64,000 nt of DNA, taken from positions 18,995 to 82,994 of the IMG/VR virus record IMGVR_UViG_3300024581_001100; one strand, written 5' to 3'. This stretch comes from a virus. A program made the translations under genes and the position numbers. This document shows, piece after piece, positions 18,619 to 58,947 of this stretch (positions are counted from its first letter, which is position 1; the number at the start of each line of letters is the position of its first letter). The notes under the pieces were generated by a model. That model saw only the letters and a list, made by a program, of their open reading frames with translations, was not told the origin of the DNA and did no database searches.

Positions 18619-19587
18619 TTATTCTCCTTTAAAATTATTAAGCTTACCGAGGTAAAAGTTTCTCGCTTTATCAGCAATCTTACTTCCTACTTGTTTCATT
18701 GTCAAGTTATTAGCCTCTAACACATCAGATTCTTCTTTGTGTACATCCTTACTCACCCAACCGATGAAACTGCCAATAGTTTTTTGATCTAACCCTACTT
18801 CTTGTAGTCCTTGTTCTAAACGATTCTCTGTAATTGCATATTCTACAAACTTATTGACAGATTCTACCACTTCAGGGTCAACAGTAGCAAGCTTCTTAAC
18901 TTTAGATACAGAATGTTTTTCCCCTTTAACCTTGAAGACTAAACGCTTGTCTCCAATATAACCCTCCCACACAATACCTTCTCCTATTCCCTCTACTCCG
19001 AAGAACTTACCAACAGGGCAACATTTCTCTACTTCTTCTGTAAATTTAGCCAATTCATTTACAGATGATTCTGGGTCAGAAAAATCAATATCTTTTGCGA
19101 ATGTTTTAAACTCAGTTACACCATAAACAGGTAATTCTTTATACTCATCAGGTCTTAGGTCTAAAGCATAGAGATCTGTAACAGGTAAGTCATTTACTCT
19201 AAACACAACAAACATTTTACCGAGTTCTGTTAATGCAACACCTTTCTGGATGTTACTACCACACCATTCTCCATAGATAATACACTCCTCTTGGTCAAAG
19301 AACTGACAAGTAGACTGCAACAGGTCTAGAAAATAATCCTTATTACTCTCTACAAAGTTAGCAAAACCAAAGTTGTCATCTTCAGGGGTAATAATACGAG
19401 AGCGTGACTGACAGAACATCTCTCCATCTTTAAGACCTATTGCTGCGTTAGTACCGTGAAGCTTTACTGTACCATCGAAAGCAATGGTAGGTAGTGGTAC
19501 ATTATGATAAGAACAATAATCTCTTACCTGTTTAACGATATTACGAAACTGTTCAATCTTACTAAATGCTTTAAATTTGTCTGACAT
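18619..19587 (-). CDS. RNA ligase (Rnl2-like)
   Basis: motif I KLHGTN, QSR, YGEW, EGIV, FKVK. Confidence 0.85.
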   Translation of the reverse strand: MSDKFKAFSKIEQFRNIVKQVRDYCSYHNVPLPTIAFDGTVKLHGTNAAIGLKDGEMFCQSRSRIITPEDDNFGFANFVESNKDYFLDLLQSTCQFFDQEECIIYGEWCGSNIQKGVALTELGKMFVVFRVNDLPVTDLYALDLRPDEYKELPVYGVTEFKTFAKDIDFSDPESSVNELAKFTEEVEKCCPVGKFFGVEGIGEGIVWEGYIGDKRLVFKVKGEKHSVSKVKKLATVDPEVVESVNKFVEYAITENRLEQGLQEVGLDQKTIGSFIGWVSKDVHKEESDVLEANNLTMKQVGSKIADKARNFYLGKLNNFKGE

Positions 19588-46656: not shown

Positions 46657-47655
46657 ATGAGTATATTTCAGGAAAACACAGCGTACCGTCCTTTTAAGTA
46701 TCCTTGGGCAGTAGAAGCTGAGAAGAAACACAGGATTGACATGCATTGGCATGAGAACCAAGTAGAGATGCAAGACGACCTAAGACAGTTTTCTAACGAA
46801 GGAGGTCTAGCTACGAAGAATGTAAGCCATGCTGCAAATAAGAATATGGTAGAAAAGCTTATCATGTTGTTTACAGAGATGGATGTTTCTGTAGGAGGTG
46901 GCTACTCAAAGTTATTAGCCAACGTTAAGAATAATGAGATCCGCACTATGTGGTTCACCTTTGCTGCAAGAGAGGTTAGTCATCAAAGGGCTTATGCATT
47001 AGCAGCAGAAACTTTTGGTTATACTAACAGTGATTGGTCTGAGTTCAAGCAGTATAAAGAAATGCAAGACAAGATAGACCTTCTTACACAAGATTTAGGA
47101 GATTTAACTAAGCCTCTTAATTTTTGTAAGATGTTATCTGTAGTATTCCTAGGGGAGGGTATTTCACTCTTTGGTGCATTCGCTTGTCTGCTCAACCTTA
47201 AACGCTACGGACTGATGAGTAATTTCAATACTATCAATGAATGGAGTTTAAAAGATGAACAGGAGCACGTTAAAAATAATATACGTGTATTCCTAGAGGC
47301 CAGTAAAGAACTCAAAGAAGTTGAACTAATAGAGTTACAAACCTTCGTAGTGGATACTGTAAGCAAGTACGTAGAGGCTGAGTGTAACTTCTTAGACTTA
47401 ATTTATGAGATGGGAGACCAAGAAGGAATGTCCCTAGAAGATACTAAAGAGTTTATAAAGTATCTAGGTGAATTAAGACTATTTCAAATTGGTTACATTG
47501 GTAGTGAAGAAGTGAGAGATAATCCTTTAGAGTGGATGGACTTCATACTTAGTGGATCTACCCATACTAACTTCTTTGAGAGTCGTGTTGTAGACTATGC
47601 TCACAACGGATTAGAAGGTACAGTAGACTACGATAAATATTTGAAGGCAAGTTAA
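46657..47655 (+). CDS. nrdB: class Ia ribonucleotide reductase beta subunit
   Basis: YRPFKYPWA, W...V.MQDD, REVSH..AY, EG..LF..FA, DEQEH, NFFE.RV.DY; ATG 46657. Confidence 0.93.
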   Translation: MSIFQENTAYRPFKYPWAVEAEKKHRIDMHWHENQVEMQDDLRQFSNEGGLATKNVSHAANKNMVEKLIMLFTEMDVSVGGGYSKLLANVKNNEIRTMWFTFAAREVSHQRAYALAAETFGYTNSDWSEFKQYKEMQDKIDLLTQDLGDLTKPLNFCKMLSVVFLGEGISLFGAFACLLNLKRYGLMSNFNTINEWSLKDEQEHVKNNIRVFLEASKELKEVELIELQTFVVDTVSKYVEAECNFLDLIYEMGDQEGMSLEDTKEFIKYLGELRLFQIGYIGSEEVRDNPLEWMDFILSGSTHTNFFESRVVDYAHNGLEGTVDYDKYLKAS

Positions 47656-47664
47656 AATAAATAG

Positions 47665-47712
47665 TTGACAAGAGTAACCCTATAGATCATACTACGGTCT
47701 ATAGAGTTTTTT
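47665..47712 (+). promoter_or_regulatory. promoter overlapping terminator hairpin
   Basis: TTGACA-N17-CATACT; ctataga/tctatag stem plus T-run. Confidence 0.55.
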
Positions 47713-47740
47713 GTTATGTGTAATTTAAAGGAGAATAGGT

Positions 47741-47947
47741 ATGCTAGATATTAACGGTAAAGAAGTAATGCCTTATGATGACTGTGTTATAGAGGATACT
47801 AGCGGACGTAAGAGAATAGGCAGATTAGAAATAGTTAAAGGTAAAGTCACTGACTCCTTCCGTCTAGCTTCTTATCAAGATAGGAAATGTCAAGTAGTGT
47901 GGAATATTAAAGATATTAAATCTGCAGAGATTATATTGGAGAATTGA
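47741..47947 (+). CDS. hypothetical protein
   Basis: AAGGAG SD. Confidence 0.7.
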   Translation: MLDINGKEVMPYDDCVIEDTSGRKRIGRLEIVKGKVTDSFRLASYQDRKCQVVWNIKDIKSAEIILEN

Positions 47948-47948
47948 T

Positions 47949-48284
47949 ATGAAACTATTATTTCAACAAGGGGAAGAAGTGATAATTCAAAGTAAACATT
48001 ACCCCGAATATAACAATCGAGAAGATGTAGTACGTCAAGTTATAGATACAGGTATTACAGACTTCCCTGCTCTATGGAGAGAGCCGATAACAGGTACTTT
48101 AGTAAGACTGAACACTAGGTATGCTTATTTACTACAACACAATAAAGAAAGGTTGTCTAATAATGGAGATAACTTGATAGTTGCATCTTGGGGGGAGAGG
48201 TCTTTACGAAAGAAACATAAACCTAGTGATAGTTCTTTCCAAAATATGATTGAATCTTTAAAACGCCCTCAGAAGCTCTCTTAG
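47949..48284 (+). CDS. hypothetical protein
   Basis: GGAG SD; last + strand gene. Confidence 0.7.
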   Translation: MKLLFQQGEEVIIQSKHYPEYNNREDVVRQVIDTGITDFPALWREPITGTLVRLNTRYAYLLQHNKERLSNNGDNLIVASWGERSLRKKHKPSDSSFQNMIESLKRPQKLS

Positions 48285-48354
48285 TAGGGTTCTCTTAGGA
48301 CATGAACCATCGTATTACTAATTAGAGATATAGCCTTACAGAGGCTTACAGGAG
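48262..48354. repeat. dispersed palindromic element, copy G (at the convergence of early and late transcription)
   Basis: core accatcgtatta; arm agaggcttacaggag is the exact reverse complement of ctcctgtaagcctct in copy D. Confidence 0.75.
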
Positions 48355-48356
48355 GT

Positions 48357-48917
48357 TTAATTACCTTTATTAGAATATAACCTGCATAACGTAAAGCTGT
48401 AATCATAAACCTCTACGTCACAGTCAGTTGGTTTTAAAAATACTTCCAATCCGTTATCTACTAAATCTTGTCCTATAAATAAGATTAAATCAGGACTGAA
48501 ATATTGTTCATCCCCTGCTGATTTATTAAAAGTTAAGGTGTCCCCATTAATAGGGTTATAACTGACAGAAGGACATTCTATAGTCAAATCCATGTGACCT
48601 CCTTGGCTATCAGGTTTGCACTTCATTCTTACATTAGCTAAGTATAAGTCGTCTGGGGTCTTAGGAAGAAATAAGTGGTTGTCAGTATCGTAGGATAAAT
48701 CAAAGTACTTGCCTCTAGAGAAACCTGTATCATTAAGAGGAATGATTAATTTGTGTTTTACCCCGTCTGCTATTGTTAAAGGAGAAGACTCTGTGTACGT
48801 GTCTACTTGTTTAAAGAGCCATCCCCCTGATTCAATAATGCTATTAACAGAACGCCTCTGCCCTGAGACTATATCCACTAATCGCCCTAATAACTCTCTG
48901 GATAAACTCATCACCAT
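48357..48917 (-). CDS. hypothetical late protein
   Basis: ORF at the end of the late operon. Confidence 0.75.
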   Translation of the reverse strand: MVMSLSRELLGRLVDIVSGQRRSVNSIIESGGWLFKQVDTYTESSPLTIADGVKHKLIIPLNDTGFSRGKYFDLSYDTDNHLFLPKTPDDLYLANVRMKCKPDSQGGHMDLTIECPSVSYNPINGDTLTFNKSAGDEQYFSPDLILFIGQDLVDNGLEVFLKPTDCDVEVYDYSFTLCRLYSNKGN

Positions 48918-49309
48918 TCACCATCTGTATCTTCATTCCACTCTCGAATAGTTACAATAAAACATACGTCATCCTCAGGAAACCACTCTTTAAATTTCCT
49001 TAAAGCTTCACCACTACGATATGCCTTACCATCTTTCAATTCCATACAAGGTGCTTGACAACCTTCCAAGTTGGAAACTGTGAACGCTTCATGTATCTCA
49101 ATATGACTTCTATTAGGAACATCCTGATACCTAAACCATTGATGTCTGCCTGTCTTATCTGCACACACTTTATATGCACCTTCTGGTATACATGATACGA
49201 AAGGTTTATTGTCTAAGTCAGGAAGTTCTAAATTATAGGTGTAAGAATCATCAGGAAATATCCATTTACCTTCTGTCCTATCTTCGTAATATCGTCTAAG
49301 TAATATCAT
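48911..49309 (-). CDS. DUF5675-like protein, candidate endolysin
   Basis: T.G......LELP..DN.P..SCIP.G.Y...DVPNRS.I.IH......LEGC. Confidence 0.7.
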   Translation of the reverse strand: MILLRRYYEDRTEGKWIFPDDSYTYNLELPDLDNKPFVSCIPEGAYKVCADKTGRHQWFRYQDVPNRSHIEIHEAFTVSNLEGCQAPCMELKDGKAYRSGEALRKFKEWFPEDDVCFIVTIREWNEDTDGEW

Positions 49310-49311
49310 AG

Positions 49312-49542
49312 CTAACGCTCCAAAGTAATCTCATACACTTTCCCACCTTTGCGTCTTTCGTAGTGAACCAGAGTCACCCCTCTCTCTGTAAACTTTTCCT
49401 TAATAGCTAATCTTAACTCTTTATTAAACTTTCCTCTTAGTCCTTTTATGTAGGCCACGTTAGGGAAAGGGTACATAACCACTAAGGTAGTGTCTCTAGT
49501 TCTCCATATCTCTGTTGTCACTTCCACCTCTATATCAACCAT
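49312..49542 (-). CDS. hypothetical protein
   Basis: ORF in the lysis region. Confidence 0.65.
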   Translation of the reverse strand: MVDIEVEVTTEIWRTRDTTLVVMYPFPNVAYIKGLRGKFNKELRLAIKEKFTERGVTLVHYERRKGGKVYEITLER

Positions 49543-49807
49543 CTTTTCTTGCCTCGTAGGTATGATTAATATATTTCAATGCCCCAAAGATAGCAGCAAC
49601 AAGGGAACCCATAGCAGCCCAGAATGGGGTTTGCGCGAAGTTTTCTGGGGTGGTAATATCTTTGTACCACACTAATAGATCGTAGCATAGCCATGAAAAA
49701 AATATAACTACCCCAATTTCTACTAAGCAGAAAAGATTAAGAGTTATTGCTATGTCTCTTAAGTTTTTATGAGATGGAATATACTTCTTTAATTTTATAA
49801 AAAACAT
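49535..49807 (-). CDS. putative class II holin
   Basis: two TM helices, charged C-terminus, lysis context. Confidence 0.55.
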   Translation of the reverse strand: MFFIKLKKYIPSHKNLRDIAITLNLFCLVEIGVVIFFSWLCYDLLVWYKDITTPENFAQTPFWAAMGSLVAAIFGALKYINHTYEARKDG

Positions 49808-50501
49808 CTTCGTCTAGTACCTTTTTATATTTATTTAGTTCTTCTTCCATTACAGATTTTTGAAAATTTTTATATAAACGTATGGCTTCTTGCTTATTGG
49901 TAGCCTTCCCTAAATAGACACTTTTATTGTTTCTGCTAGACTGTACATAGTAACTCCCCTTCTTGTATTGGTAACAACCGCTGCTATCTTTTGAATTATT
50001 CTTTATAAACAACGCATTAAGCTTCTTAGGTACTAGTCGGCAAAACTTAGGGGAATACTCTTTCTCTGCGCAGTTGTGGGACATAATATCCTTATCTATA
50101 TCAAAACCTTGTATATACGCACATTTTTGAGAAGAATACCATTTTTCGAATTCTAAGTAAGACCACCAATCCTTACATACTTCCACTTTTTCATAAGACT
50201 TATGTCTAGGGAAATTTTCAGTGGAGTAACATCTCCTCAAGATCCCTTTCCAAATACCGTAAACTTTTTTATCAACAGGAAGTTCAGTCCCTAAATAACC
50301 CCTACCATAAAAGTAAGGATAAAAAGGGTCTTTCACTTTTCCCGCCCTAATACAACACAAAGTGGTAGTCTTTCGGAATCCTGTATCTAGGAACTCTACA
50401 GTTACTTTTTTAGAATTTATGACACTAACAATCTTACACACCCCGTAGCTGTTAGACTTATAAATTTTCCCTATTAATTCCTTGTCACTCAATTTTTTCA
50501 A
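49767..50501 (-). CDS. HNH-like homing endonuclease
   Basis: W.GILRRCY, VCKDW..Y..F..W, DIDKDI, YSP..C..VP..LN; C-terminal AP2-like segment. Confidence 0.8.
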   Translation of the reverse strand: MKKLSDKELIGKIYKSNSYGVCKIVSVINSKKVTVEFLDTGFRKTTTLCCIRAGKVKDPFYPYFYGRGYLGTELPVDKKVYGIWKGILRRCYSTENFPRHKSYEKVEVCKDWWSYLEFEKWYSSQKCAYIQGFDIDKDIMSHNCAEKEYSPKFCRLVPKKLNALFIKNNSKDSSGCYQYKKGSYYVQSSRNNKSVYLGKATNKQEAIRLYKNFQKSVMEEELNKYKKVLDEDVFYKIKEVYSIS

Positions 50502-50580
50502 AATTTCCCCCTATCCAAACATATACTAAAATAATAGTAACAATAATAATCTGTATGAAAAGGGATGTCAATACCACTTT

Positions 50581-50880
50581 TTAATCTTTTCCCACATAAT
50601 CCCTCTCTTTAAGTTCTTTAATTAAGAGGGCATCTTTTTCATAACATTTCTTAACTTGCCCTAAGTTATAAGCGTATACCTCATAGAAAGCCCTGAGAGA
50701 CGTTTCCTGAGCATTTTCTTTAAGAGGGTAAGCTACCCTACAGGGTACTCCTAAAAGAGGGCTTAGAGGTGCTTGTAGGAGCTTTTCTTCTACCTTATTG
50801 ACTTCCGTTAATGGAACGGATGGAGTCATTGAACATGCTGTTAAGGTCAGCAGGAACAACATCACAATCTTCTTGCACAT
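50581..50880 (-). CDS. o-spanin (Rz1-like lipoprotein)
   Basis: lipobox LTAC, Pro-rich segment, overlaps the i-spanin 3' end. Confidence 0.75.
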   Translation of the reverse strand: MCKKIVMLFLLTLTACSMTPSVPLTEVNKVEEKLLQAPLSPLLGVPCRVAYPLKENAQETSLRAFYEVYAYNLGQVKKCYEKDALLIKELKERDYVGKD

Positions 50881-51208
50881 ATATCTCTCGCTCTATATAT
50901 TCTGTGATAGTTTTAACCTCAGTATCTACTGCCTGTTCTTCCTGAATACGCTGTAAGGTTATCTCTTCTTGTCTTTGTAATTCTCTACGTTGTTGTTGTA
51001 AGCGGTATATAAGTAGTTCTTGCGCTTGGGCATTAGCCTCATTAAGTTTCTCTTGGTATTCTTGTACAGCAGCATTATAACCTCTGTCATATATACCTGA
51101 CTTAATCTCAGACCAACCTACCCAAGCACTAATGCCTATGATTAAGGCAACACTAACACTTGCAAGTATTTTTCTATTTTTTATTAAACTTACCACTGAG
51201 GTAATCAT
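50795..51208 (-). CDS. i-spanin (Rz-like)
   Basis: N-terminal TM, coiled coil, C-terminal Cys; AGGAG SD. Confidence 0.75.
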   Translation of the reverse strand: MITSVVSLIKNRKILASVSVALIIGISAWVGWSEIKSGIYDRGYNAAVQEYQEKLNEANAQAQELLIYRLQQQRRELQRQEEITLQRIQEEQAVDTEVKTITEYIEREIYVQEDCDVVPADLNSMFNDSIRSINGSQ

Positions 51209-51623
51209 CTACACTCTCCTTATTCAATATTTTATTACACAATCTGAGGATCTCATGTGCATATCCATAACTACGGACAGCATTTAGTATTTCATCTTTT
51301 GTAAAAGGTTTCTCTAGATAATCTATAAAACCAGACGAATATGCCTGTAGTTTATCATTTAAATTATGAGAGCCAGAAATAGCCACAATAGGGGTGTGGT
51401 GTAATTCCTTGTGTTGACGTAGTTTACTGGCAACAGAAAAACCATCTTCTTCCGCTAAATAAAGGTCTAGTACAATTACATCAGGGTTAAAGGTTATCAC
51501 TTCTTTATAAAAATCTTTAATAAGAGGGGATAGGGCATATTTAGTCTCTATCCCTTCCTCATTAAGCATAAATGCCAGAAGCGTTAGTGTAATAGGGTCA
51601 TCATCTATAATGAACACTTTCAT
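51174..51623 (-). CDS. single-domain response regulator (CheY-like receiver)
   Basis: D7-D8-D9 pocket, D53 phospho-acceptor, S83, Y102, K105-P106. Confidence 0.9.
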   Translation of the reverse strand: MKVFIIDDDPITLTLLAFMLNEEGIETKYALSPLIKDFYKEVITFNPDVIVLDLYLAEEDGFSVASKLRQHKELHHTPIVAISGSHNLNDKLQAYSSGFIDYLEKPFTKDEILNAVRSYGYAHEILRLCNKILNKESVDDYLSGKFNKK

Positions 51624-51627
51624 AGGA

Positions 51628-51990
51628 TTATTCCTTACGTCTGTTCAACTCTTTCTGATAATCAGCTATCGCATTTGCTTTTTCAATTTGAATAGTTAAG
51701 TTGATTACCGCCGTGTGTATGTCCTTAACATCCCTGCTCGTTTCCGCTTGTGCTTGTTCTAATTTAACGAAATACTCTTGTAGTAGTTTCCTTGTTTGTT
51801 CCTCTGTGATAAAAGTGTTACTGTGTTCAATTTGTTTCTCTGACAGTTTCTTTAAATCAGAAATTAATTGGTCAATAACTTTATCACGTCTTTTTTTATC
51901 GTACCACACCCATGCTTGACTTCCCCCTGCTAGGGTAGACACAGATGCAGCCAATGTTGATAATACTTCAGGGGAAAATACACCCGACAT
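51628..51990 (-). CDS. membrane-anchored coiled-coil protein (holin/antiholin-like)
   Basis: N-terminal hydrophobic segment, KKRR stop-transfer, coiled coil. Confidence 0.55.
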   Translation of the reverse strand: MSGVFSPEVLSTLAASVSTLAGGSQAWVWYDKKRRDKVIDQLISDLKKLSEKQIEHSNTFITEEQTRKLLQEYFVKLEQAQAETSRDVKDIHTAVINLTIQIEKANAIADYQKELNRRKE

Positions 51991-52400
51991 TACGTTACTT
52001 CCTCACTCATCATTAATAGGTGTGTTGCTGTCACCCTATCTAAATATCTACTGTTGTATGTTCCAGCAGCGTAAGCGGCTAGTTCAAAACAGAACCACTT
52101 ATCTGTGTCATCCCAATCTCCTCTAAATACAAACTTAAAGATAGCCCCCCAATCATAGGACTTTCCTAATTGGTCTTTCAACCGTCTTTGGAAATCACCT
52201 TTATGGGGTATCTCTATGATCTTGTGGTTAGGGTATCGTTGTTTGAAATTAACAAGAGACGATATTACAACACCATGAGAAGCCGTAGCCTCAATAACTT
52301 CGTTATTAACAATAACTCCGCAATGAGACCACTTACTCCAATTGTGGAGTCTAATAGCTAGACTCCCTATCTTATTATTAGCACCCAGAATAACTCTCAT
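51990..52400 (-). CDS. permuted papain-like (YiiX/NlpC-P60, peptidase C92) protein
   Basis: WSHCG, VIEA, GKSYDW, WFCFEL. Confidence 0.8.
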   Translation of the reverse strand: MRVILGANNKIGSLAIRLHNWSKWSHCGVIVNNEVIEATASHGVVISSLVNFKQRYPNHKIIEIPHKGDFQRRLKDQLGKSYDWGAIFKFVFRGDWDDTDKWFCFELAAYAAGTYNSRYLDRVTATHLLMMSEEVT

Positions 52401-52403
52401 GAA

Positions 52404-53105
52404 TTAATCCCATGTAAGGTTAGTCATATAATCTTCAATGTCAGCCTTTGTGAGAAGACTGTCAATGTTATCCTTATGTACCCTAGCCTTAAACACTAAA
52501 GTCTCTTTGTGATGCGCTACAGCTTGTCCTAGAGCCACCATATCCGCGTTAGTCATAGCGACTTGTTGGTTATCAGCAGTAAGCCATGTAGTGTCAATAC
52601 CAGACATAATTGCCCCCATGATATCCATGATAGAGGTAGCATCTGTTTGGAAGGTATTACCATTATGAAGAACACCACCACTGATAAGAGCATCCCTTTG
52701 AGAATTTACTGTCTGTTTAGCATTGGCTTTGATAAAGTCTAAGTCTACAGACTCTACTGTTACAGGAGATTCACTGTCATTGTGTAGTTCCCAAAGTTTT
52801 CCCCATACATCAATCTCAACATCGACCATTTTAGGCTGTTCCTTTGTGATGTCCTGAAAGATTTGCTCCCCTGTATCATCGTAGTATGTGGGATTACCCT
52901 CTTCGCCTAAGACAGGTTCTTGTCCTACTACAACTTCTTCTACCCCATCTTGTACTTGTGTAAAGCGTTTAAATCCTTCACGTATGACTCCTGAGTGTGT
53001 TGGCAGTCCTTCGCCTTCATCCCACACCCAAAATACAGAGCCATCTTCGTTTTCTTTAAATGTGTCGACTTTTAGGAAGTCGCTTTCTTCTATAAATTTC
53101 AGCAT
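52404..53105 (-). CDS. tail fibre assembly protein with DUF4376-like C-terminus
   Basis: RD.....GV...G..FQTD..S....W.TADN..V. Confidence 0.7.
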   Translation of the reverse strand: MLKFIEESDFLKVDTFKENEDGSVFWVWDEGEGLPTHSGVIREGFKRFTQVQDGVEEVVVGQEPVLGEEGNPTYYDDTGEQIFQDITKEQPKMVDVEIDVWGKLWELHNDSESPVTVESVDLDFIKANAKQTVNSQRDALISGGVLHNGNTFQTDATSIMDIMGAIMSGIDTTWLTADNQQVAMTNADMVALGQAVAHHKETLVFKARVHKDNIDSLLTKADIEDYMTNLTWD

Positions 53106-53124
53106 TGTTGCTCCTTAAAAGTGA

Positions 53125-54543
53125 TTAAAAGTTGACGGTGATTTTTGAGGCACTTCCGTCAGTGCGTAAGTTAACGGGAAGCCCTGCGGAACTTGACAAA
53201 CCACTAACTTCAATAACAAGAACTTTAGGGCTGCTTAAGGTTGTCGGGGACGGGACTATGCCAGTTGCTAAAGTTGAACCACCTTGTAAAACTCTGAATG
53301 TTCCATTTACAGTGAAAGAGGATGGGACAGAGTGACTATTAATGGGAAGATAAAATCTGGCAATGCTTGCAGTCACCATTTCCCCAAAAGATATGACGTC
53401 TTGACCATCTGCCTTAAACTCATTAAAGTTAGTGTTACCGCTATCAAAGACAGTACGTTCTTTAATGTTTGTGCCATCTTTAGCTCTAATAACTGTTTCG
53501 CCTAACGATGCACCTGCCCTAGAGATTGTCAATTGCCCCCATATATCCGCATCACGTGACATAGTAATACCCACTCCGTTAGGTATAGTAAGTCCTTGGT
53601 AAGTTTTAGGACGATTAGCTGTCGCAGAGTCAAATACAAAAAATTGGTTAGGTTGGGATGATAAGTTCAAGTCATTAATAATACTCCCTGTAGAATCACG
53701 CATACCATTATTAGTAACTAAGGATAAACCATAATCCAAAGGGTTAACAGAGTTGCCACTGTCATAATTCTCAAACCAGTCAGTCCATGCGCTTCCTGTG
53801 TACGTTTTGGTAAATGCTTGCACACCTTTAGACACATACGCTGTTATTTTTACACGTACTCCATCTCGTTGCACAAAAATTGTGTAATTGGTATTAGATG
53901 TTGTAATAGGAGGGCTATTATTCACTGAATTTTGGGCAGATTGAAATGAAGTATAAAAACCTGTTTCATATTCACCTAATTGATGCCAATCCGTTAAAGA
54001 AATAAACTTACCTGTACCTCCTAAACCAAAAGAACCCACTTCCATGATATTCCCGCTAGACGTACCTACATTCTTCGTAGCAGCACTACCTAACCCTAAC
54101 ACACTTCTAGCTGTGCCAGCGTCATTAGCCTCTACAAGAGATTCCCCTAAAGTGGTAATATTAACCACTTCATAGGTGTTATCATCAATACGTTTAATAA
54201 GACCCTGTGTAGCCAAATCTTCAATAGCAGATACATTACTAACAATCTCTCTCACATTAGAGATAGCTTCAGCAAGACCTTCATTTGTATTGAAAGATAC
54301 AAGAGGTTGGTTAGATACATCTCCTTGTGACCAGTTATTTCTAAGAGTGATTGTAGATACACCACTTCCGTCAGGAGATGTCCCAGAGACTGCCTCTGCT
54401 GGATTATCAGCGCCACCTAAGAATACTGCTGTTCCTGAGTATACTCTTGAACAATCTACATTTCCTGAAATTGATATTGTTTTTGTACCATCTAATATCG
54501 AAGCATTACTTGCTACGAGAAATTGAACTGGATTTACAGCCAT
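53125..54543 (-). CDS. tail fibre / receptor-binding protein
   Basis: ARSVLGLGSAATKNVGT..GN.MEVG.FGLG hinge typical of gammaproteobacterial phage fibres. Confidence 0.8.
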   Translation of the reverse strand: MAVNPVQFLVASNASILDGTKTISISGNVDCSRVYSGTAVFLGGADNPAEAVSGTSPDGSGVSTITLRNNWSQGDVSNQPLVSFNTNEGLAEAISNVREIVSNVSAIEDLATQGLIKRIDDNTYEVVNITTLGESLVEANDAGTARSVLGLGSAATKNVGTSSGNIMEVGSFGLGGTGKFISLTDWHQLGEYETGFYTSFQSAQNSVNNSPPITTSNTNYTIFVQRDGVRVKITAYVSKGVQAFTKTYTGSAWTDWFENYDSGNSVNPLDYGLSLVTNNGMRDSTGSIINDLNLSSQPNQFFVFDSATANRPKTYQGLTIPNGVGITMSRDADIWGQLTISRAGASLGETVIRAKDGTNIKERTVFDSGNTNFNEFKADGQDVISFGEMVTASIARFYLPINSHSVPSSFTVNGTFRVLQGGSTLATGIVPSPTTLSSPKVLVIEVSGLSSSAGLPVNLRTDGSASKITVNF

Positions 54544-54562
54544 TATTTTATTCCTAATTTGA

Positions 54563-57500
54563 TTATGCTAATTTGTTTTCTTCTGTTTTAAGAGAACCAC
54601 TAATACTAGTAGCTGCTACTGTCCCTGTAGCCCCTGCATTTATAAAATCTACTTCTAGTGTGTAAGTTCGATTACCTGTAGAAGTACTTGTATCAAAGAA
54701 GAAGTCTGACGACCTAAACCTAAAGAATGTCTTATTTAAACCTACTTCAGGTTCATTTTCATAGACAGTACTTGTAGGGTAATCTACGTAAGAGTTTATC
54801 ACCGTAGTACCTCTCTTAACTCGTACTCTCATCTGAAGTTTTCCTGCTTGATCCCTTTGATCTCCTGACATCTCTAATTCTAACTTACCTAGCGTAGTTA
54901 ATGTGACCACTTTACCTGCGGAATTATGTGTAAGAGACGCGCTACCTGATGACGAACTTGTGTTTGAGAAAGTGGTTGTTTTAGTTTCAAGTATTTCCCC
55001 TTGGAAGAAATCCCCTTTAATAAAACCTGTGCCATCCTTTTTAACCCAAAAGATACCATTAGCGTCAGTCTTACTTCCAGTACCAGACCATATCATATAT
55101 GTGCCATCGTCCAACTCTGTACGATAACCAGAAGATGCTGTCCTGATAAGACCACCTGTAACAGTAGTACCTGATATAGTACCTCCTGATATAGTGTTAC
55201 CTGTTATGGTTGTACCTGTTATAGACCCACCGCTAATAGTAGTACCTTGAATGTTACCAGCAGTTATAGTACCTAATGTACCTGAAGGTGCAGATAACGT
55301 CCCTTTAAACACAGAGTTATTTTCTATAACAAGGTTCTGTGCATAAGCAGTACCATTAGAAAGTAAACCAAACACCATATTCTGTGTTGATACGCTCCCT
55401 GTACCATACCAAAGAGGAAAAGAAGGATCTCCTACTACTACCCTTGGCACAGAAGTACTTCCAGAAGTTCGTAGAATTGCCCCTGTGATAAGTTTACCAT
55501 CAATAGCACCAGCACTAAGCTTGGCGGCAGTAATTGCCTCTGCCGCTATCTGAGTGGCTGTAATCGTACCATCCACTATTAAGTTGCCAGCTTTCTTCCT
55601 ACGGAGACGTATATTAGTTATCCATAGTTGACCTTGTGTGTGGTCTGCCCATAGAGATACTTGTATTCTTGTAGGATTGCCTGTATACTTGTAAGTGAAA
55701 GTTCGTCCCATCCAACCTCCATTCGTGTTAACAAAGGAGTCGGCAGTCAAGATGTTGTTACTGTTTAGTGCATCACCTATACGTAGTTTACTATCCCCTG
55801 TGCCATTCCAATCAGGGGTCGTATACAAGTCATATTCTAGATACAGTTCTTCGTTTGTCTTAAGGTCAGGGTTATAGTTTAAATCGACTTGTTTAGTGCC
55901 ACTACTTACAGGTAAAAACCTTAAAGCTTTTTGAAGGATAGGGCTTGCACTAGATTCTTGTATACTGGCAGTGCCGTTTATTCCCTCCCAAGGTATTTCC
56001 TCTGCTACTTCAAAGTCACTACCATACGTAAGATTTTCAAAATCGCTAATAACAAGATTCTTAGTGGTGATAGTGTCAGCGGCAATTAATTCTCCTGTGA
56101 TTGTGCTGAAAGCTAACTTATCCCCAGTTATAACCCTTGCCTTGATTGCATCAGCTTCAATAGCATCTGAAGCAATAAGACTTGCAGTAATAGTGTTAGC
56201 TTGGATTTTATCGCCAGTGATTGTGTTACCAAGGATATTCCCACCAATAATAGTGTTAGCAGCTATCTGGTTAGAAGTAATACTACCCGCAGTAATTTCC
56301 CTAGCGCCGATTGTGTTAGCAATAATCTTGTCAGCATGAACACTGTTACCTTTAATCTCGTCACCAGTGATCGTAAGGGCAGCTATTTGTCCCGCAGTAA
56401 TGCTATTTGCAACCAATTTATCTGCGCTAATAGTACCTGCTATTATTTTAGATCCATTAAGAGTGTTAGTGGTAATCCTATCACCTGATATAGAGTTGAC
56501 TATAAGTTTGTCACCTGTTATGGTGTTTCCTTGAATCAAATCCCCTGTGATCGATAACGCTGCAATCTCTCTAGCGGATATACTTTCAGCGACAATCTTA
56601 GAAGCGTCTAAAGTATTAGCGGTAATCCTATTACCATTAATACTGTTAGCATTCATCTTGTCTGTAGTGACTGCACCTGACACAATCTTATCAGCTTGGA
56701 CACTATTTACTGCCAGTTCATCCGCTGTAATAGTGCCTGTAGCTATTTGGTCAGCTGTGATAGTGTTAACTACCAACTTATCACCAGTGATTGTATTACC
56801 TTGTATTAAGTTACCAGTAATAGTAAGCGCACCAATCTCTCTAGCAGATAGTGTACCCGCTACAATCTTATCACCTGTGATGGTGTTAGCGTCTATCTTA
56901 TCGCCTGTGATAGCTAAAGCAGCAATCTTACTTGCTACGATACTGTTAGCTGCAAGTAATGGGGTAGTGATTGCATTGTCAGAGATAGAAGTGGATTGTA
57001 TCGGGAATAAACTATTAACTTGATTAATACCCTTAGCAGCCTTAATCTCTGTAATGGCATTGTTTATAATAGCGTTGACATCTTCTACTATGTAGATGCC
57101 TTCATTAACTTCCTCTCCTTCAAGTTCTAGGAGTGCAAGGTCATCCTCTACCTGACTAAGTTTAGAATTTATTTCTGGTAGTGTTGTACTATTAAGGCTA
57201 GATATATCTCCTTGAACATCAGTGAGGGTCTGATTAATGTCAGGGATTGTTACGGTATTAAGAGTATCTAATTGGTTTTGAGCATCTAGGAGGTCTTGGT
57301 TGAGTTGTGTTAGGTCTAGCTCGTCTAAGTCAGCCTCTACCTCTGTAATACGGGAATTGATATCAGGTAAAGTTACATCGTTTAATGTAGTTAGTCCCTG
57401 CTCTAATTCTGCCAGAGAGTCTTCTAATTCAGTAAGGTCAACAGAACCTAAATTTTCCAAGTCTTCTTGAACTTGAGCAATAGTTGCCGTAACATCTGGG

Positions 57501-57988
57501 AGCACCACATTATTAAGGTTGTCAAGGTCTTGTTGTAGTGCAGGTAATTTCTCGTTGTTAACTACGTTAAGAGAATTATTAACTAAGGTAATTTCTTTAG
57601 AGAATTTCTTGTTAGTACGTGCGTTATCAATTACACTATTCACTTCAGCAATGATAGTAGTATAAGGGTTTTCAAAATCTTCCCCTAAGATTTCATTAAT
57701 CTTAAGTTCAATCTCTGCCTGTATACGTTCACTAGCAATCGCCTCAGCTACTTGATCCTCTAACTCTTGTTCAAAATCAGACTCTATCTGGGGCAGTAGT
57801 TGGTCTACTATTTGTTGGATAAAGTCTTCACCTTGATTAGATACAGTGTCAACAATAAGCCCTTGAAAGTTACCTAGCTTTATTTTGTAGTCTTGTCCAT
57901 CAGTCACACGTTTGACATAGAAGACAAAGTTTTCTTCATCCGTTAACGTTGCAATTTCAGGAAAATCTGTAATCTCGAATTGTGCCAT
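54563..57988 (-). CDS. long tail fibre with coiled-coil repeats, 31 decapeptide repeats and a CBM-like domain
   Basis: L.TLN.VTLPDIN repeats; ITxDKIxAxT tandem array; G/T/I-rich beta repeats. Confidence 0.8.
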   Translation of the reverse strand: MAQFEITDFPEIATLTDEENFVFYVKRVTDGQDYKIKLGNFQGLIVDTVSNQGEDFIQQIVDQLLPQIESDFEQELEDQVAEAIASERIQAEIELKINEILGEDFENPYTTIIAEVNSVIDNARTNKKFSKEITLVNNSLNVVNNEKLPALQQDLDNLNNVVLPDVTATIAQVQEDLENLGSVDLTELEDSLAELEQGLTTLNDVTLPDINSRITEVEADLDELDLTQLNQDLLDAQNQLDTLNTVTIPDINQTLTDVQGDISSLNSTTLPEINSKLSQVEDDLALLELEGEEVNEGIYIVEDVNAIINNAITEIKAAKGINQVNSLFPIQSTSISDNAITTPLLAANSIVASKIAALAITGDKIDANTITGDKIVAGTLSAREIGALTITGNLIQGNTITGDKLVVNTITADQIATGTITADELAVNSVQADKIVSGAVTTDKMNANSINGNRITANTLDASKIVAESISAREIAALSITGDLIQGNTITGDKLIVNSISGDRITTNTLNGSKIIAGTISADKLVANSITAGQIAALTITGDEIKGNSVHADKIIANTIGAREITAGSITSNQIAANTIIGGNILGNTITGDKIQANTITASLIASDAIEADAIKARVITGDKLAFSTITGELIAADTITTKNLVISDFENLTYGSDFEVAEEIPWEGINGTASIQESSASPILQKALRFLPVSSGTKQVDLNYNPDLKTNEELYLEYDLYTTPDWNGTGDSKLRIGDALNSNNILTADSFVNTNGGWMGRTFTYKYTGNPTRIQVSLWADHTQGQLWITNIRLRRKKAGNLIVDGTITATQIAAEAITAAKLSAGAIDGKLITGAILRTSGSTSVPRVVVGDPSFPLWYGTGSVSTQNMVFGLLSNGTAYAQNLVIENNSVFKGTLSAPSGTLGTITAGNIQGTTISGGSITGTTITGNTISGGTISGTTVTGGLIRTASSGYRTELDDGTYMIWSGTGSKTDANGIFWVKKDGTGFIKGDFFQGEILETKTTTFSNTSSSSGSASLTHNSAGKVVTLTTLGKLELEMSGDQRDQAGKLQMRVRVKRGTTVINSYVDYPTSTVYENEPEVGLNKTFFRFRSSDFFFDTSTSTGNRTYTLEVDFINAGATGTVAATSISGSLKTEENKLA
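56042..56971 (-). repeat. 31 x 30-bp coding tandem repeat
   Basis: counted from ITTPLLAANS to ITTKNLVISD. Confidence 0.9.
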
Positions 57989-58047
57989 TTATGTTTCCTT
58001 GAAGCTTGAGGCTATCGTTAAACATCCCCTGAGAGAGTACAGAGGTG

Positions 58048-58947
58048 TTATGCCGTTCTTACTACGTTTACTATAGAAAGTGCTTGCTCCTTGCTCATGG
58101 GGTAAAAAGATTTATCTTCTTTCCTGAAAGATAAGGGCACTCTGTAGGCAATTATTCCTGACCTAAGTTTGTTACCCCCTGAAGCAGACCTTCTTAATAC
58201 CGAAGTGTGATTAGTAGGGCAACACAAACTCTTACAAAATTCCGCCGCATAAACTACGTAGTACCATATATCTAAACCTTTTATGTATACTAAGTAATCT
58301 GGCTTAGTTAAGGCATTAGAAAATGCCTGATTTTTTACATGGGATGTGCTTTTAGGTACGCCCTTTCTTACCAGCGATTGTTTCCTCTTAGTTTCCTCAG
58401 AAGTCACACTACCTTTTTTATGAGGAGATATGGGAATACCTTGCTCTCTCATATTTTGATAATGTTCCTTCAGACCTTTACTAACTTTTTCTCTAAAAGA
58501 TTTTGAATATTTCTTTCCCTTATTATAAGGAATTCTCCTACGTAATTGTTCTTTTTGTTCTTCCTTCATTATAAAGCCACACCTGCCATCACCTCCATCT
58601 GTCATGTTAGAGAGTATACCTGTGCCGTTATCCCTTCGCCCATACAGTGATATTAAGTACTTTTCTAGTTCTAACATATTATCTCTATCATCCGATATGG
58701 CGATCATATTCACCTTAACTTTACCTCCTGTACTAGAACATATCTTATTTATTATATTATCTTTCATAAGGTTCTCCCCTTTAGCTGACGGAGAGAAATG
58801 AGAGGCATACCTAGACCTAGTGCCGACCCCCACATAAAAAGGAGTACCATCTGGGTAACATAAAGTGTACACGTAAGAGAATCTAGCCTTCCTCGACTGT
58901 AAACTAAAATCAAGGTCAAAACACTCCTCATATTTCACATCTGTCAT
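58048..58947 (-). CDS. GIY-YIG-like homing endonuclease with NUMOD3 repeats
   Basis: YVY...FYVG.G..R...H, LE..LI..YGR...G.L.N.TDGGDG, SEETKRKQS. Confidence 0.85.
   Translation of the reverse strand: MTDVKYEECFDLDFSLQSRKARFSYVYTLCYPDGTPFYVGVGTRSRYASHFSPSAKGENLMKDNIINKICSSTGGKVKVNMIAISDDRDNMLELEKYLISLYGRRDNGTGILSNMTDGGDGRCGFIMKEEQKEQLRRRIPYNKGKKYSKSFREKVSKGLKEHYQNMREQGIPISPHKKGSVTSEETKRKQSLVRKGVPKSTSHVKNQAFSNALTKPDYLVYIKGLDIWYYVVYAAEFCKSLCCPTNHTSVLRRSASGGNKLRSGIIAYRVPLSFRKEDKSFYPMSKEQALSIVNVVRTA

Follow-up and report, generated by a model that had tools for sequence, protein, structure and literature searches.

A stand-alone receiver protein and its predicted membrane-tethered partner at the head of phage lysis cassettes

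Based on a stretch of viral DNA of 64,000 nucleotides (nt), namely positions 18,995 to 82,994 of the IMG/VR record IMGVR_UViG_3300024581_001100 (the whole stretch is called the window below), we present an analysis of a stand-alone receiver (REC) protein of 149 amino acids (aa), which is encoded on the minus strand at 51174-51623 within a lysis cassette. A preliminary description of the window had noted this embedding of a receiver among lysis genes, and our survey finds it again in three lineages of phages and in two cassette types unrelated to each other. The surveyed loci are drawn from IMG/VR and public assemblies, and the statements below cover the REC loci whose flanks were examined; in all of them the receiver gene is preceded by the gene of a small protein with a predicted transmembrane (TM) segment and a predicted coiled coil (CC), called TM-CC here, and is followed by lysis genes. 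The tightest and most informative partner of the receiver is this upstream protein, not the spanins or the holin. It is probable that TM-CC and the receiver make up one functional pair belonging to the lysis cassette. The further reading, that the receiver may be a phospho-switch partner of TM-CC which sets the lysis timing from host phosphodonors, is given a probability of about 0.42 on the sequence evidence. The receiver gene has been published before, but without its lysis context; our additions are its reading as part of a lysis cassette, its obligatory pairing with a releasin-like protein and the occurrence of this arrangement in three phage lineages.

The assignment of the receiver is well defined by its domain match. 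Residues 3-117 match the Response_reg profile PF00072 over all of its 111 positions (E 5.6e-22; 78.5 bits, cut-off 30.2), PHROG 731 is also matched, and the translation contains D7-D8-D9, D53, S83, Y102 and K105-P106, which bears out the earlier claim of a stand-alone receiver with all catalytic residues. The AlphaFold2 model, built with 14 homologues, has the canonical (beta-alpha)5 fold with a mean per-residue confidence (pLDDT) of 88.2 and a predicted TM-score (pTM) of 0.82; in it alpha5 extends to residue 133, and the charged, variable tail beyond is poorly predicted. With Foldseek, solved receivers are found at E ~1e-11, with root mean square deviations of 1.4-1.6 Å and a TM-score of 0.9 on the targets, and the matches that also span the long alpha5 are WspR, PleD, RssB and NtrC1, in which this helix serves as a stalk for oligomerisation. 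In a comparison of 11 diverse receivers with 33-64% identity to that of the window, no change is seen at D7, D8, D53, S83, K105 or P106, and residue 102 is always aromatic (Tyr or Phe); the same catalytic residues are kept in the receivers of the second cassette type (the L106 type, 28% identical). This invariance argues against a degenerate pseudo-receiver. The homologue check proposed in the preliminary description turned out in its favour: the receivers are linked to lysis genes, and D53 and K105 are unchanged even at 33% identity. All receivers compared have the alpha5 extension, with variable sequence, and Cys129 is kept among the closer relatives only.

The family is small, comprising 14 clusters at 90% identity among 5.8 billion proteins, with about 5 stand-alone receiver representatives at 50% identity among 1.84 billion proteins. 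Since the best cellular receivers are just 32-36% identical, and over the core domain only, these comparisons indicate that the family is private to (marine) phages, and a recent capture from a host is rejected on the same ground. A search of 185,579 species genomes finds no prophage copy. In NCBIfam and the PDB, the receiver is matched best by generic entries (CtrA, DivK-like, PhoB, RpaA and VicR) and not by CheY in particular, and the best NCBIfam matches all lie far below their cut-offs. An assignment as CheY proper was also considered and rejected, with CtrA, DivK-like and PhoB as the best NCBIfam matches and no kinase or che-type gene turning up in the phage; on sequence grounds, the term "CheY-like" is valid in the superfamily sense only.

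The second line of evidence is the constancy of the neighbourhood. In the window, the receiver ATG follows the end of the TM-CC gene after a gap of 4 nt ('taa tcct atg'), and the receiver gene overlaps the gene of the inner-membrane spanin (i-spanin) by 35 nt, with an AAGGAG site preceding the i-spanin ATG; both distances are as first described, by the coordinates of the open reading frames (ORFs). The closest cultured relatives by receiver identity are the Alteromonas myovirus V22 (63%) and the schitovirus A5 (43%). The order TM-CC, receiver, lysis genes is found in V22-type myoviruses (the window, L010-L013, L004 and L005), in A5-type schitoviruses with an SU10-type portal (L002, L014, L006, L107 and L109), in the divergent contigs L015 and L016, and in loci with a second cassette type, characterised by a GH24 lysozyme (L106 and L110-L112). 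The first cassette type consists of TM-CC, receiver, i-spanin, an overlapped outer-membrane spanin (o-spanin) and a holin with two transmembrane domains (TMDs), and it is completed by an endolysin slot of changing content. This slot holds a DUF5675 protein in the window (48911-49309, minus strand), L004, L005, L015 and L016, a Peptidase_M15_3 protein in L011 (6507-6896) and L013, which matches the endolysin family phrog_894 at E 2.9e-22, and a 147-aa phrog_3108 protein in the A5 type (L014:6302-6745), annotated as endolysin in A5. Together with the GH24 lysozyme of the second type (L106:5147-5641), four different proteins occupy the slot overall. Because the muralytic enzyme swaps, the block is read as a lysis cassette headed by a conserved TM-CC/REC pair, and the variable slot in turn supports DUF5675 as an endolysin.

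Searches with TM-CC return about 90 clusters in two length classes, with one TM-CC protein present on 21 contigs. The short class (~100 aa) heads the second cassette type in other myoviruses of 93-100 kb, where the order is TM-CC, an overlapping receiver, a four-TMD protein, GH24 lysozyme, i-spanin, a LysC-type o-spanin (PF23793 LysC; phrog_456 at E 4.1e-11) and a membrane protein of 61-65 aa, and where the cassette ends with a C92 (YiiX/YaeF-type) permuted papain-like amidase in L106, L111 and L112, not called in L110. The receiver of this type, in spite of its 28% identity to that of the window, matches Pfam at E 1.1e-21 and has a similar C-terminal helix. We also noticed between the receiver and the four-TMD gene a Pro/acidic-rich ORF of 34-35 codons (L110:4714-4821, L111:4718-4822), the position of which is kept in three GH24-type loci.

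TM-CC is present without REC in L104, L115 and L113/L114. The i-spanin follows TM-CC directly in L104 and L115, and in L104, a complete genome of 72 kb with terminal repeats, PF00072 has no match anywhere. A REC of this family without TM-CC is not seen in the loci examined. This one-sided pattern, with TM-CC lacking REC and never the reverse, would follow from TM-CC acting as the effector, with the receiver as a regulator that can be absent. As a separate observation, L113 (704-1084) and L114 (688-1059) encode directly after TM-CC, with no receiver, a multi-pass membrane protein of 123-126 aa (phrog_2524, E 1.7e-23), which may be a holin partner of TM-CC. TM-CC of the L113/L114 type shows a faint match to XhlA.

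TM-CC itself begins with a weakly hydrophobic segment rich in Gly, Ala, Ser and Thr, followed by an invariant W-x-W-Y-D-K-K junction and a long helical C-terminal domain; AlphaFold2 places helices at 7-19, 22-58 and 63-119, with low confidence at the N-terminus. From the acidic N-terminal flank and the basic K/R junction, an N-out/C-in orientation is predicted, and we infer that the protein is tethered to the membrane with its helical domain in the cytoplasm. This is reminiscent of the releasin gp25 of phage Mu, a tethered N-out/C-in cytoplasmic protein of 99 aa which is required for endolysin release, and of its family DUF2730, which is paired with many endolysin types and has its described members confined to Mu-like transposable phages (PMC9239132). 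Both proteins have about 100-120 aa, an N-terminal TMD (weak as a hydrophobic segment in TM-CC), a scant periplasmic part, a basic junction, a predicted helical domain in the cytoplasm and a gene near that of the endolysin. They differ in that the sequence match of TM-CC is sub-threshold (the window TM-CC has no match to DUF2730, PF10805) and in that the endolysin candidates of the window are without an N-terminal hydrophobic segment; no receiver partner is mentioned in the Mu lysis paper (PMC9239132). In a language-model search of the Atlas with TM-CC, Mu-like releasin clusters are among the nearest, with a score of 0.92 and 8 of 30 hits. By analogy, TM-CC may work like a releasin and is perhaps distantly related to it.

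Several other identities of TM-CC were tried and rejected. For a His-phosphotransfer (DHp-like) protein, E55-H56 is invariant in 9 sequences, but His56 is Gln in L015 and the H56 segment is missing from the L106-type proteins. An E-x-x-N phosphatase motif of the CheX/CheC type (E55..N58) fails at N58, which is not conserved. Homology to the N4 pinholin gp63 receives an hhalign probability of 0.7%, with a mirror-image architecture alone being common to both, and XhlA (PF10779) is too weak, one relative reaching 31 bits against a cut-off of 34.7 over just 26 residues. Searches of PDB sequences, run with DUF5675 and with the profile of TM-CC, yield either nothing or coiled-coil noise.

We then consider a direct contact between the two proteins, modelled with two copies of TM-CC (residues 28-120) and one receiver, each with its own alignment. 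The complex scores 0.40, while the best of 3 controls scores 0.00, the runs agree in at least 72% of contacts, and the partner has a pLDDT of at least 79. In the calibration, the mark is reached by 58 of 80 solved complexes and by 2 of 110 mismatched pairs, and scores of at most 0.60 comprise 7 of the 80 solved complexes and both passing mismatches; the three-chain job with custom alignments differs from this calibration. Since gene linkage gives a strong prior, the result is counted as a mild plus, and the model lends weak support to a binding of the receiver to the cytoplasmic domain of TM-CC.

As for the source of a phosphoryl group, HATPase_c, HisKA and Hpt have no match anywhere in the 87-kb phage record, which extends the lack of a kinase gene first noted for the window; because the phage encodes no kinase, any phosphoryl group must come from the host. 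The mechanism we propose is as follows. A late coupled transcript would yield TM-CC, receiver, spanins, holin and endolysin, the arrangement being seen in the sequence and the co-transcription presumed. TM-CC would sit in the inner membrane, N-out/C-in, as its flank charges suggest, so placing its helical domain beside the receiver, a phosphorylatable single-domain response regulator and putative cytoplasmic partner of the protein that opens the cassette. The receiver would bind this helical domain, probably via the alpha4-beta5-alpha5 face together with the extended alpha5. For its putative phosphorylation at D53, the only sources would be kinases and phosphotransfer proteins of the host or small phosphodonors, acetyl phosphate among them, and the phospho-state would alter how TM-CC acts on membrane permeabilisation or endolysin release, whether by promotion or by delay, so that the lysis time would track the signalling or energy state of the host. 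The more specific form of a signal-gated lysis clock, in which the 'output domain' of the regulator is a separate releasin- or holin-like membrane protein and the charge comes from host kinases or acetyl phosphate, is a speculative one and rather doubtful.

The question of how often the pairing arose bears on its weight as evidence. When 43 cellular receiver domains are included in a maximum-likelihood tree, the 11 phage receivers of the window type fall into one clade (SH-aLRT 90), and the L106-type receivers are placed elsewhere in the free tree, with a single phage clade not being rejected (p-AU 0.375). One ancient TM-CC/REC pairing and two independent recruitments are both possible on these sequences; the two receiver groups do not cluster in the free tree, and the pairing may have arisen twice. 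Two independent recruitments, if true, would be stronger evidence for a functional link. Within the first cassette type, a joint transfer of the V22/A5 block and the tail fibre from one phage family to another is probable (PMC10579305).

A number of points weigh against the phospho-switch. The evidence for a role in lysis is gene position alone, and the cassettes without REC show that the receiver is dispensable for lysis as such. The membrane anchor of TM-CC is weak, with a best 17-mer Kyte-Doolittle value of 1.22 in the window and a family median of 1.38. The likeness to releasin is faint at the sequence level: the relatives P0187 and P0180 match PF10805 (5-101/102) just under its cut-off of 24.9 bits, with 22.4 and 20.7 bits, and hhalign of TM-CC against Mu gp25 gives a probability of 10.9% (E 0.0028). 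The complex score falls in a range where passes are mostly wrong unless the pairing is likely beforehand. The two REC groups may differ in origin, and the V22 and A5 lineages are not fully independent because the block probably moved jointly.

The alternative that survives best, itself improbable, is a host-signalling decoy, in which the receiver drains a host kinase or phosphorelay, or mimics a host single-domain regulator, and the lysis neighbourhood is incidental. Phosphate-sink receivers are established in bacterial chemotaxis systems, and the intact catalytic residues together with the lack of a phage kinase, which leave the phosphoryl group to the host, suit a decoy as well. This is the published reading: in the V22 and A5 papers, the receiver gene counts among the class II auxiliary metabolic genes and is described as "CheY-like" (PMC7289586, PMC10579305). 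However, a decoy leaves unexplained the constant coupling to TM-CC, which is kept in both cassette types, unrelated as they are, and at identities as low as 28%, as well as the location in a late structural/lysis operon instead of among early host-takeover genes; there is no close host homologue to mimic, the best being 32-36% identical, and the phosphate sink on a host phosphorelay, raised in the preliminary description, is without specific support.

Less probable still is a phosphorylation-independent subunit, a receiver fold that serves TM-CC or the holin as a structural adaptor or chaperone and reads no signal. Many receiver-fold proteins work without phosphorylation, and the extended alpha5 resembles the oligomerising stalk helices of WspR, PleD, RssB and NtrC1. 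However, pseudo-receivers usually lose several catalytic residues, whereas here D7, D8, D53, S83, K105 and P106 are invariant over a range of 33-86% identity and are present in the 28%-identical copies of the L106 type. Finally, another membrane function of the pair, such as superinfection exclusion, the sensing of incoming phage DNA or a tail-fibre role in host recognition, would agree with the location of the pair at the boundary of tail-fibre and lysis genes in every locus and with the published placement of the receiver in a host-recognition module, but is the least likely of the three, as the upstream tail genes and fibres differ (L015, L016, L106, L110 and L111) while lysis genes always lie downstream, and as in L113/L114 TM-CC is directly followed by a small multi-pass membrane protein. 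In phage N4, lysis inhibition has been proposed to act through the cytoplasmic domain of a single-TMD pinholin (PMC12642591), and by this precedent the signalling of superinfection and the control of lysis could coincide; the sensing of superinfection could then merge with the phospho-switch, if the signal were superinfection as in lysis inhibition.

It is of interest to compare the proposed phospho-switch with known systems. With the single-domain regulators CheY, Spo0F, DivK and CpdR, the receiver of the window has in common the receiver fold, the full catalytic set, the absence of an output domain and, as proposed here, action through contacts with other proteins, and it differs from them in being phage-encoded, in having no cognate kinase and in its C-terminal extension of 30 residues. 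LytSR in Staphylococcus controls the holin-like cid/lrg genes at the level of transcription, via the DNA-binding LytTR regulator and its own kinase. The common point is a two-component signal linked to holin-like membrane proteins, while the receiver of the window has neither a DNA-binding domain nor a kinase, and its NCBIfam LytR match is restricted to the receiver part. A single-domain response regulator that binds a membrane enzyme is described in Myxococcus (EpsW; PMC12802240). The N4 pinholin gp63 with its regulator gp62, and the antiholins RI and RIII of T4 (T4 by description), are alike in that lysis timing is exerted via a small protein of the membrane whose regulatory part lies in the cytoplasm. 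Unlike TM-CC, gp63 is anchored at its C-terminus, a mirror orientation without homology, and its 'Receiver domain' is a label of the authors and not a REC domain (PMC12642591).

The features of the cassette are collected in Table 1.

Table 1. Cassette and adjoining genes of the window, in the direction of transcription (minus strand, from the tail fibre to the 186-aa protein)
Feature	Coordinates	Strand	Basis
Tail fibre	53125-54543	minus	N-terminal sequence and position homologous to V22/A5 fibre
Tail-fibre chaperone	52404-53105	minus	V22/A5 homology; DUF4376 called on orthologues of relatives
C92 (YiiX/YaeF-type) permuted papain-like amidase, 136 aa	51990-52400	minus	PF05708 E 5.2e-4, sub-cut-off
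TM-CC, 120 aa	51628-51990	minus	Alignments, AlphaFold2 helices, hydropathy, flank charges
Stand-alone receiver (REC), 149 aa	51174-51623	minus	Pfam PF00072, AlphaFold2, conservation in 11 homologues
i-spanin, 137 aa, N-terminal TMD and periplasmic coiled coil	50795-51208	minus	PHROG 4297, 214, 1152 Rz-like, E ~1e-4
o-spanin, 99 aa, lipobox L-T-A-C	50581-50880	minus	phrog_4719 Rz-like spanin E 2.5e-4
HNH homing-endonuclease-like	49767-50501	minus	phrog_953 E 1.1e-35
Holin-like, 90 aa, two hydrophobic segments, charged C-terminus	49535-49807	minus	Hydropathy, position
Conserved 76-aa protein between holin and endolysin candidate	49312-49542	minus	Homologous ORFs in L011, L013, L016
DUF5675 protein, 132 aa, candidate endolysin	48911-49309	minus	PF18925 E 1.4e-18
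186-aa protein adjoining DUF5675	48357-48917	minus	phrog_8270 E 2.6e-26

The spanin, holin-like and DUF5675 neighbours named in the preliminary description are all recovered here, by the PHROG Rz-like matches, the lipobox, the two hydrophobic segments and PF18925. The o-spanin gene shares 86 nt, in a different frame, with the 3' end of the i-spanin gene, the relatives carry the same overlapped lipoprotein gene, and the pair has the features of a two-component spanin of the Rz/Rz1 type. The 90-aa holin-like protein has no family match; its hydropathy was scanned on the near-identical orthologue of L013 and on relatives, and its position after the spanins is kept in all V22/A5-type loci. Between spanins and holin lies the HNH gene, which overlaps the holin start by 41 nt, is found within the window and L013 only (V22, L011, L004 and L005 are without it) and is preceded by a promoter-like site at 50571-50543 (TTGACA-17-TATTAT, 11 of 12 matches). 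The HNH gene is a mobile insertion within the lysis cassette and does not belong to its conserved gene set. With the exception of the strong site before HNH, a promoter and terminator scan of 47600-58500 gives counts at or below the shuffled expectation, and is therefore uninformative on the limits of the operon.

As candidate endolysin, the DUF5675 protein occupies the very slot that Peptidase_M15_3 holds in L011 and L013, and like the C92 protein it is without an N-terminal hydrophobic segment, as read from the translations. DUF5675 has been called C82-like and proposed as a lysin domain (bioRxiv 10.64898/2026.04.11.717860), and the likely endolysin of Vibrio phage Martha is weakly similar to L,D-transpeptidase according to the Mu lysis paper (PMC9239132). 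A relation of DUF5675 to the endolysin protein of A5 is rejected, there being no similarity and the slot being variable. The 76-aa and 186-aa proteins flanking DUF5675 recur in relatives in varying order. The C92 amidase, for its part, travels with the cassettes; it stands first in the V22 type and last in the GH24 type (L106:6371-6793, L111:6399-6821), while the A5 type is without it; PF05708 is called in L111 and L112, and in L106 the protein scores above the cut-off (36.4 bits against 27). It may be a second cell-wall hydrolase, and the label of phrog_1128 on it, 'enoyl-CoA hydratase/carnithine racemase-like', looks misleading.

The source record is an 87-kb virus with an estimated completeness of 94%. 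Its DNA match to V22 is limited to 11% of a stretch of 6.6 kb, at 79.5%, and the phage is by these figures a relative of V22, yet distinct. The receiver orthologues are gp30 of V22 (vB_AmeM_PT11-V22) and gp11 of A5 (vB_AemP_PT15-A5), with neighbours alike. In the original papers the gene is placed inside a host-recognition module common to phage families, its neighbours are "hypothetical", and the words spanin, holin and endolysin are absent from both (PMC7289586, PMC10579305); literature searches pairing CheY or receiver domains with spanins or lysis cassettes returned nothing relevant. By homology, V22 gp29, gp31 and gp32 and A5 gp10, gp12 and gp13 are re-read here as the TM-CC, i-spanin and holin-like genes. 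The o-spanin gene is left unannotated in both records. In addition, the A5-type cassette (L002 5631-7305) lies between the tail genes and the portal gene, and the same slot in N4 (L017 4977-6654) holds the lysis genes gp63-gp60, which encode unrelated proteins.

On the whole, the analysis calls into question the label of "auxiliary metabolic gene" for gp30 and gp11, and reinterprets V22 gp29 and gp31 as well as A5 gp10 and gp12 as lysis genes. The TM-CC family, with its ~90 clusters, is widespread in marine viromes, and V22 and A5 are cultured phages whose marine host is non-pathogenic, which makes the reading directly testable. Lysis timing sets the burst size and fitness of a phage, and its known controls are holin clocks, antiholins and the lysis inhibition of T4 and N4; if the phospho-switch is true, two-component phosphorylation of the receiver would be an added input to the lysis-timing decision.

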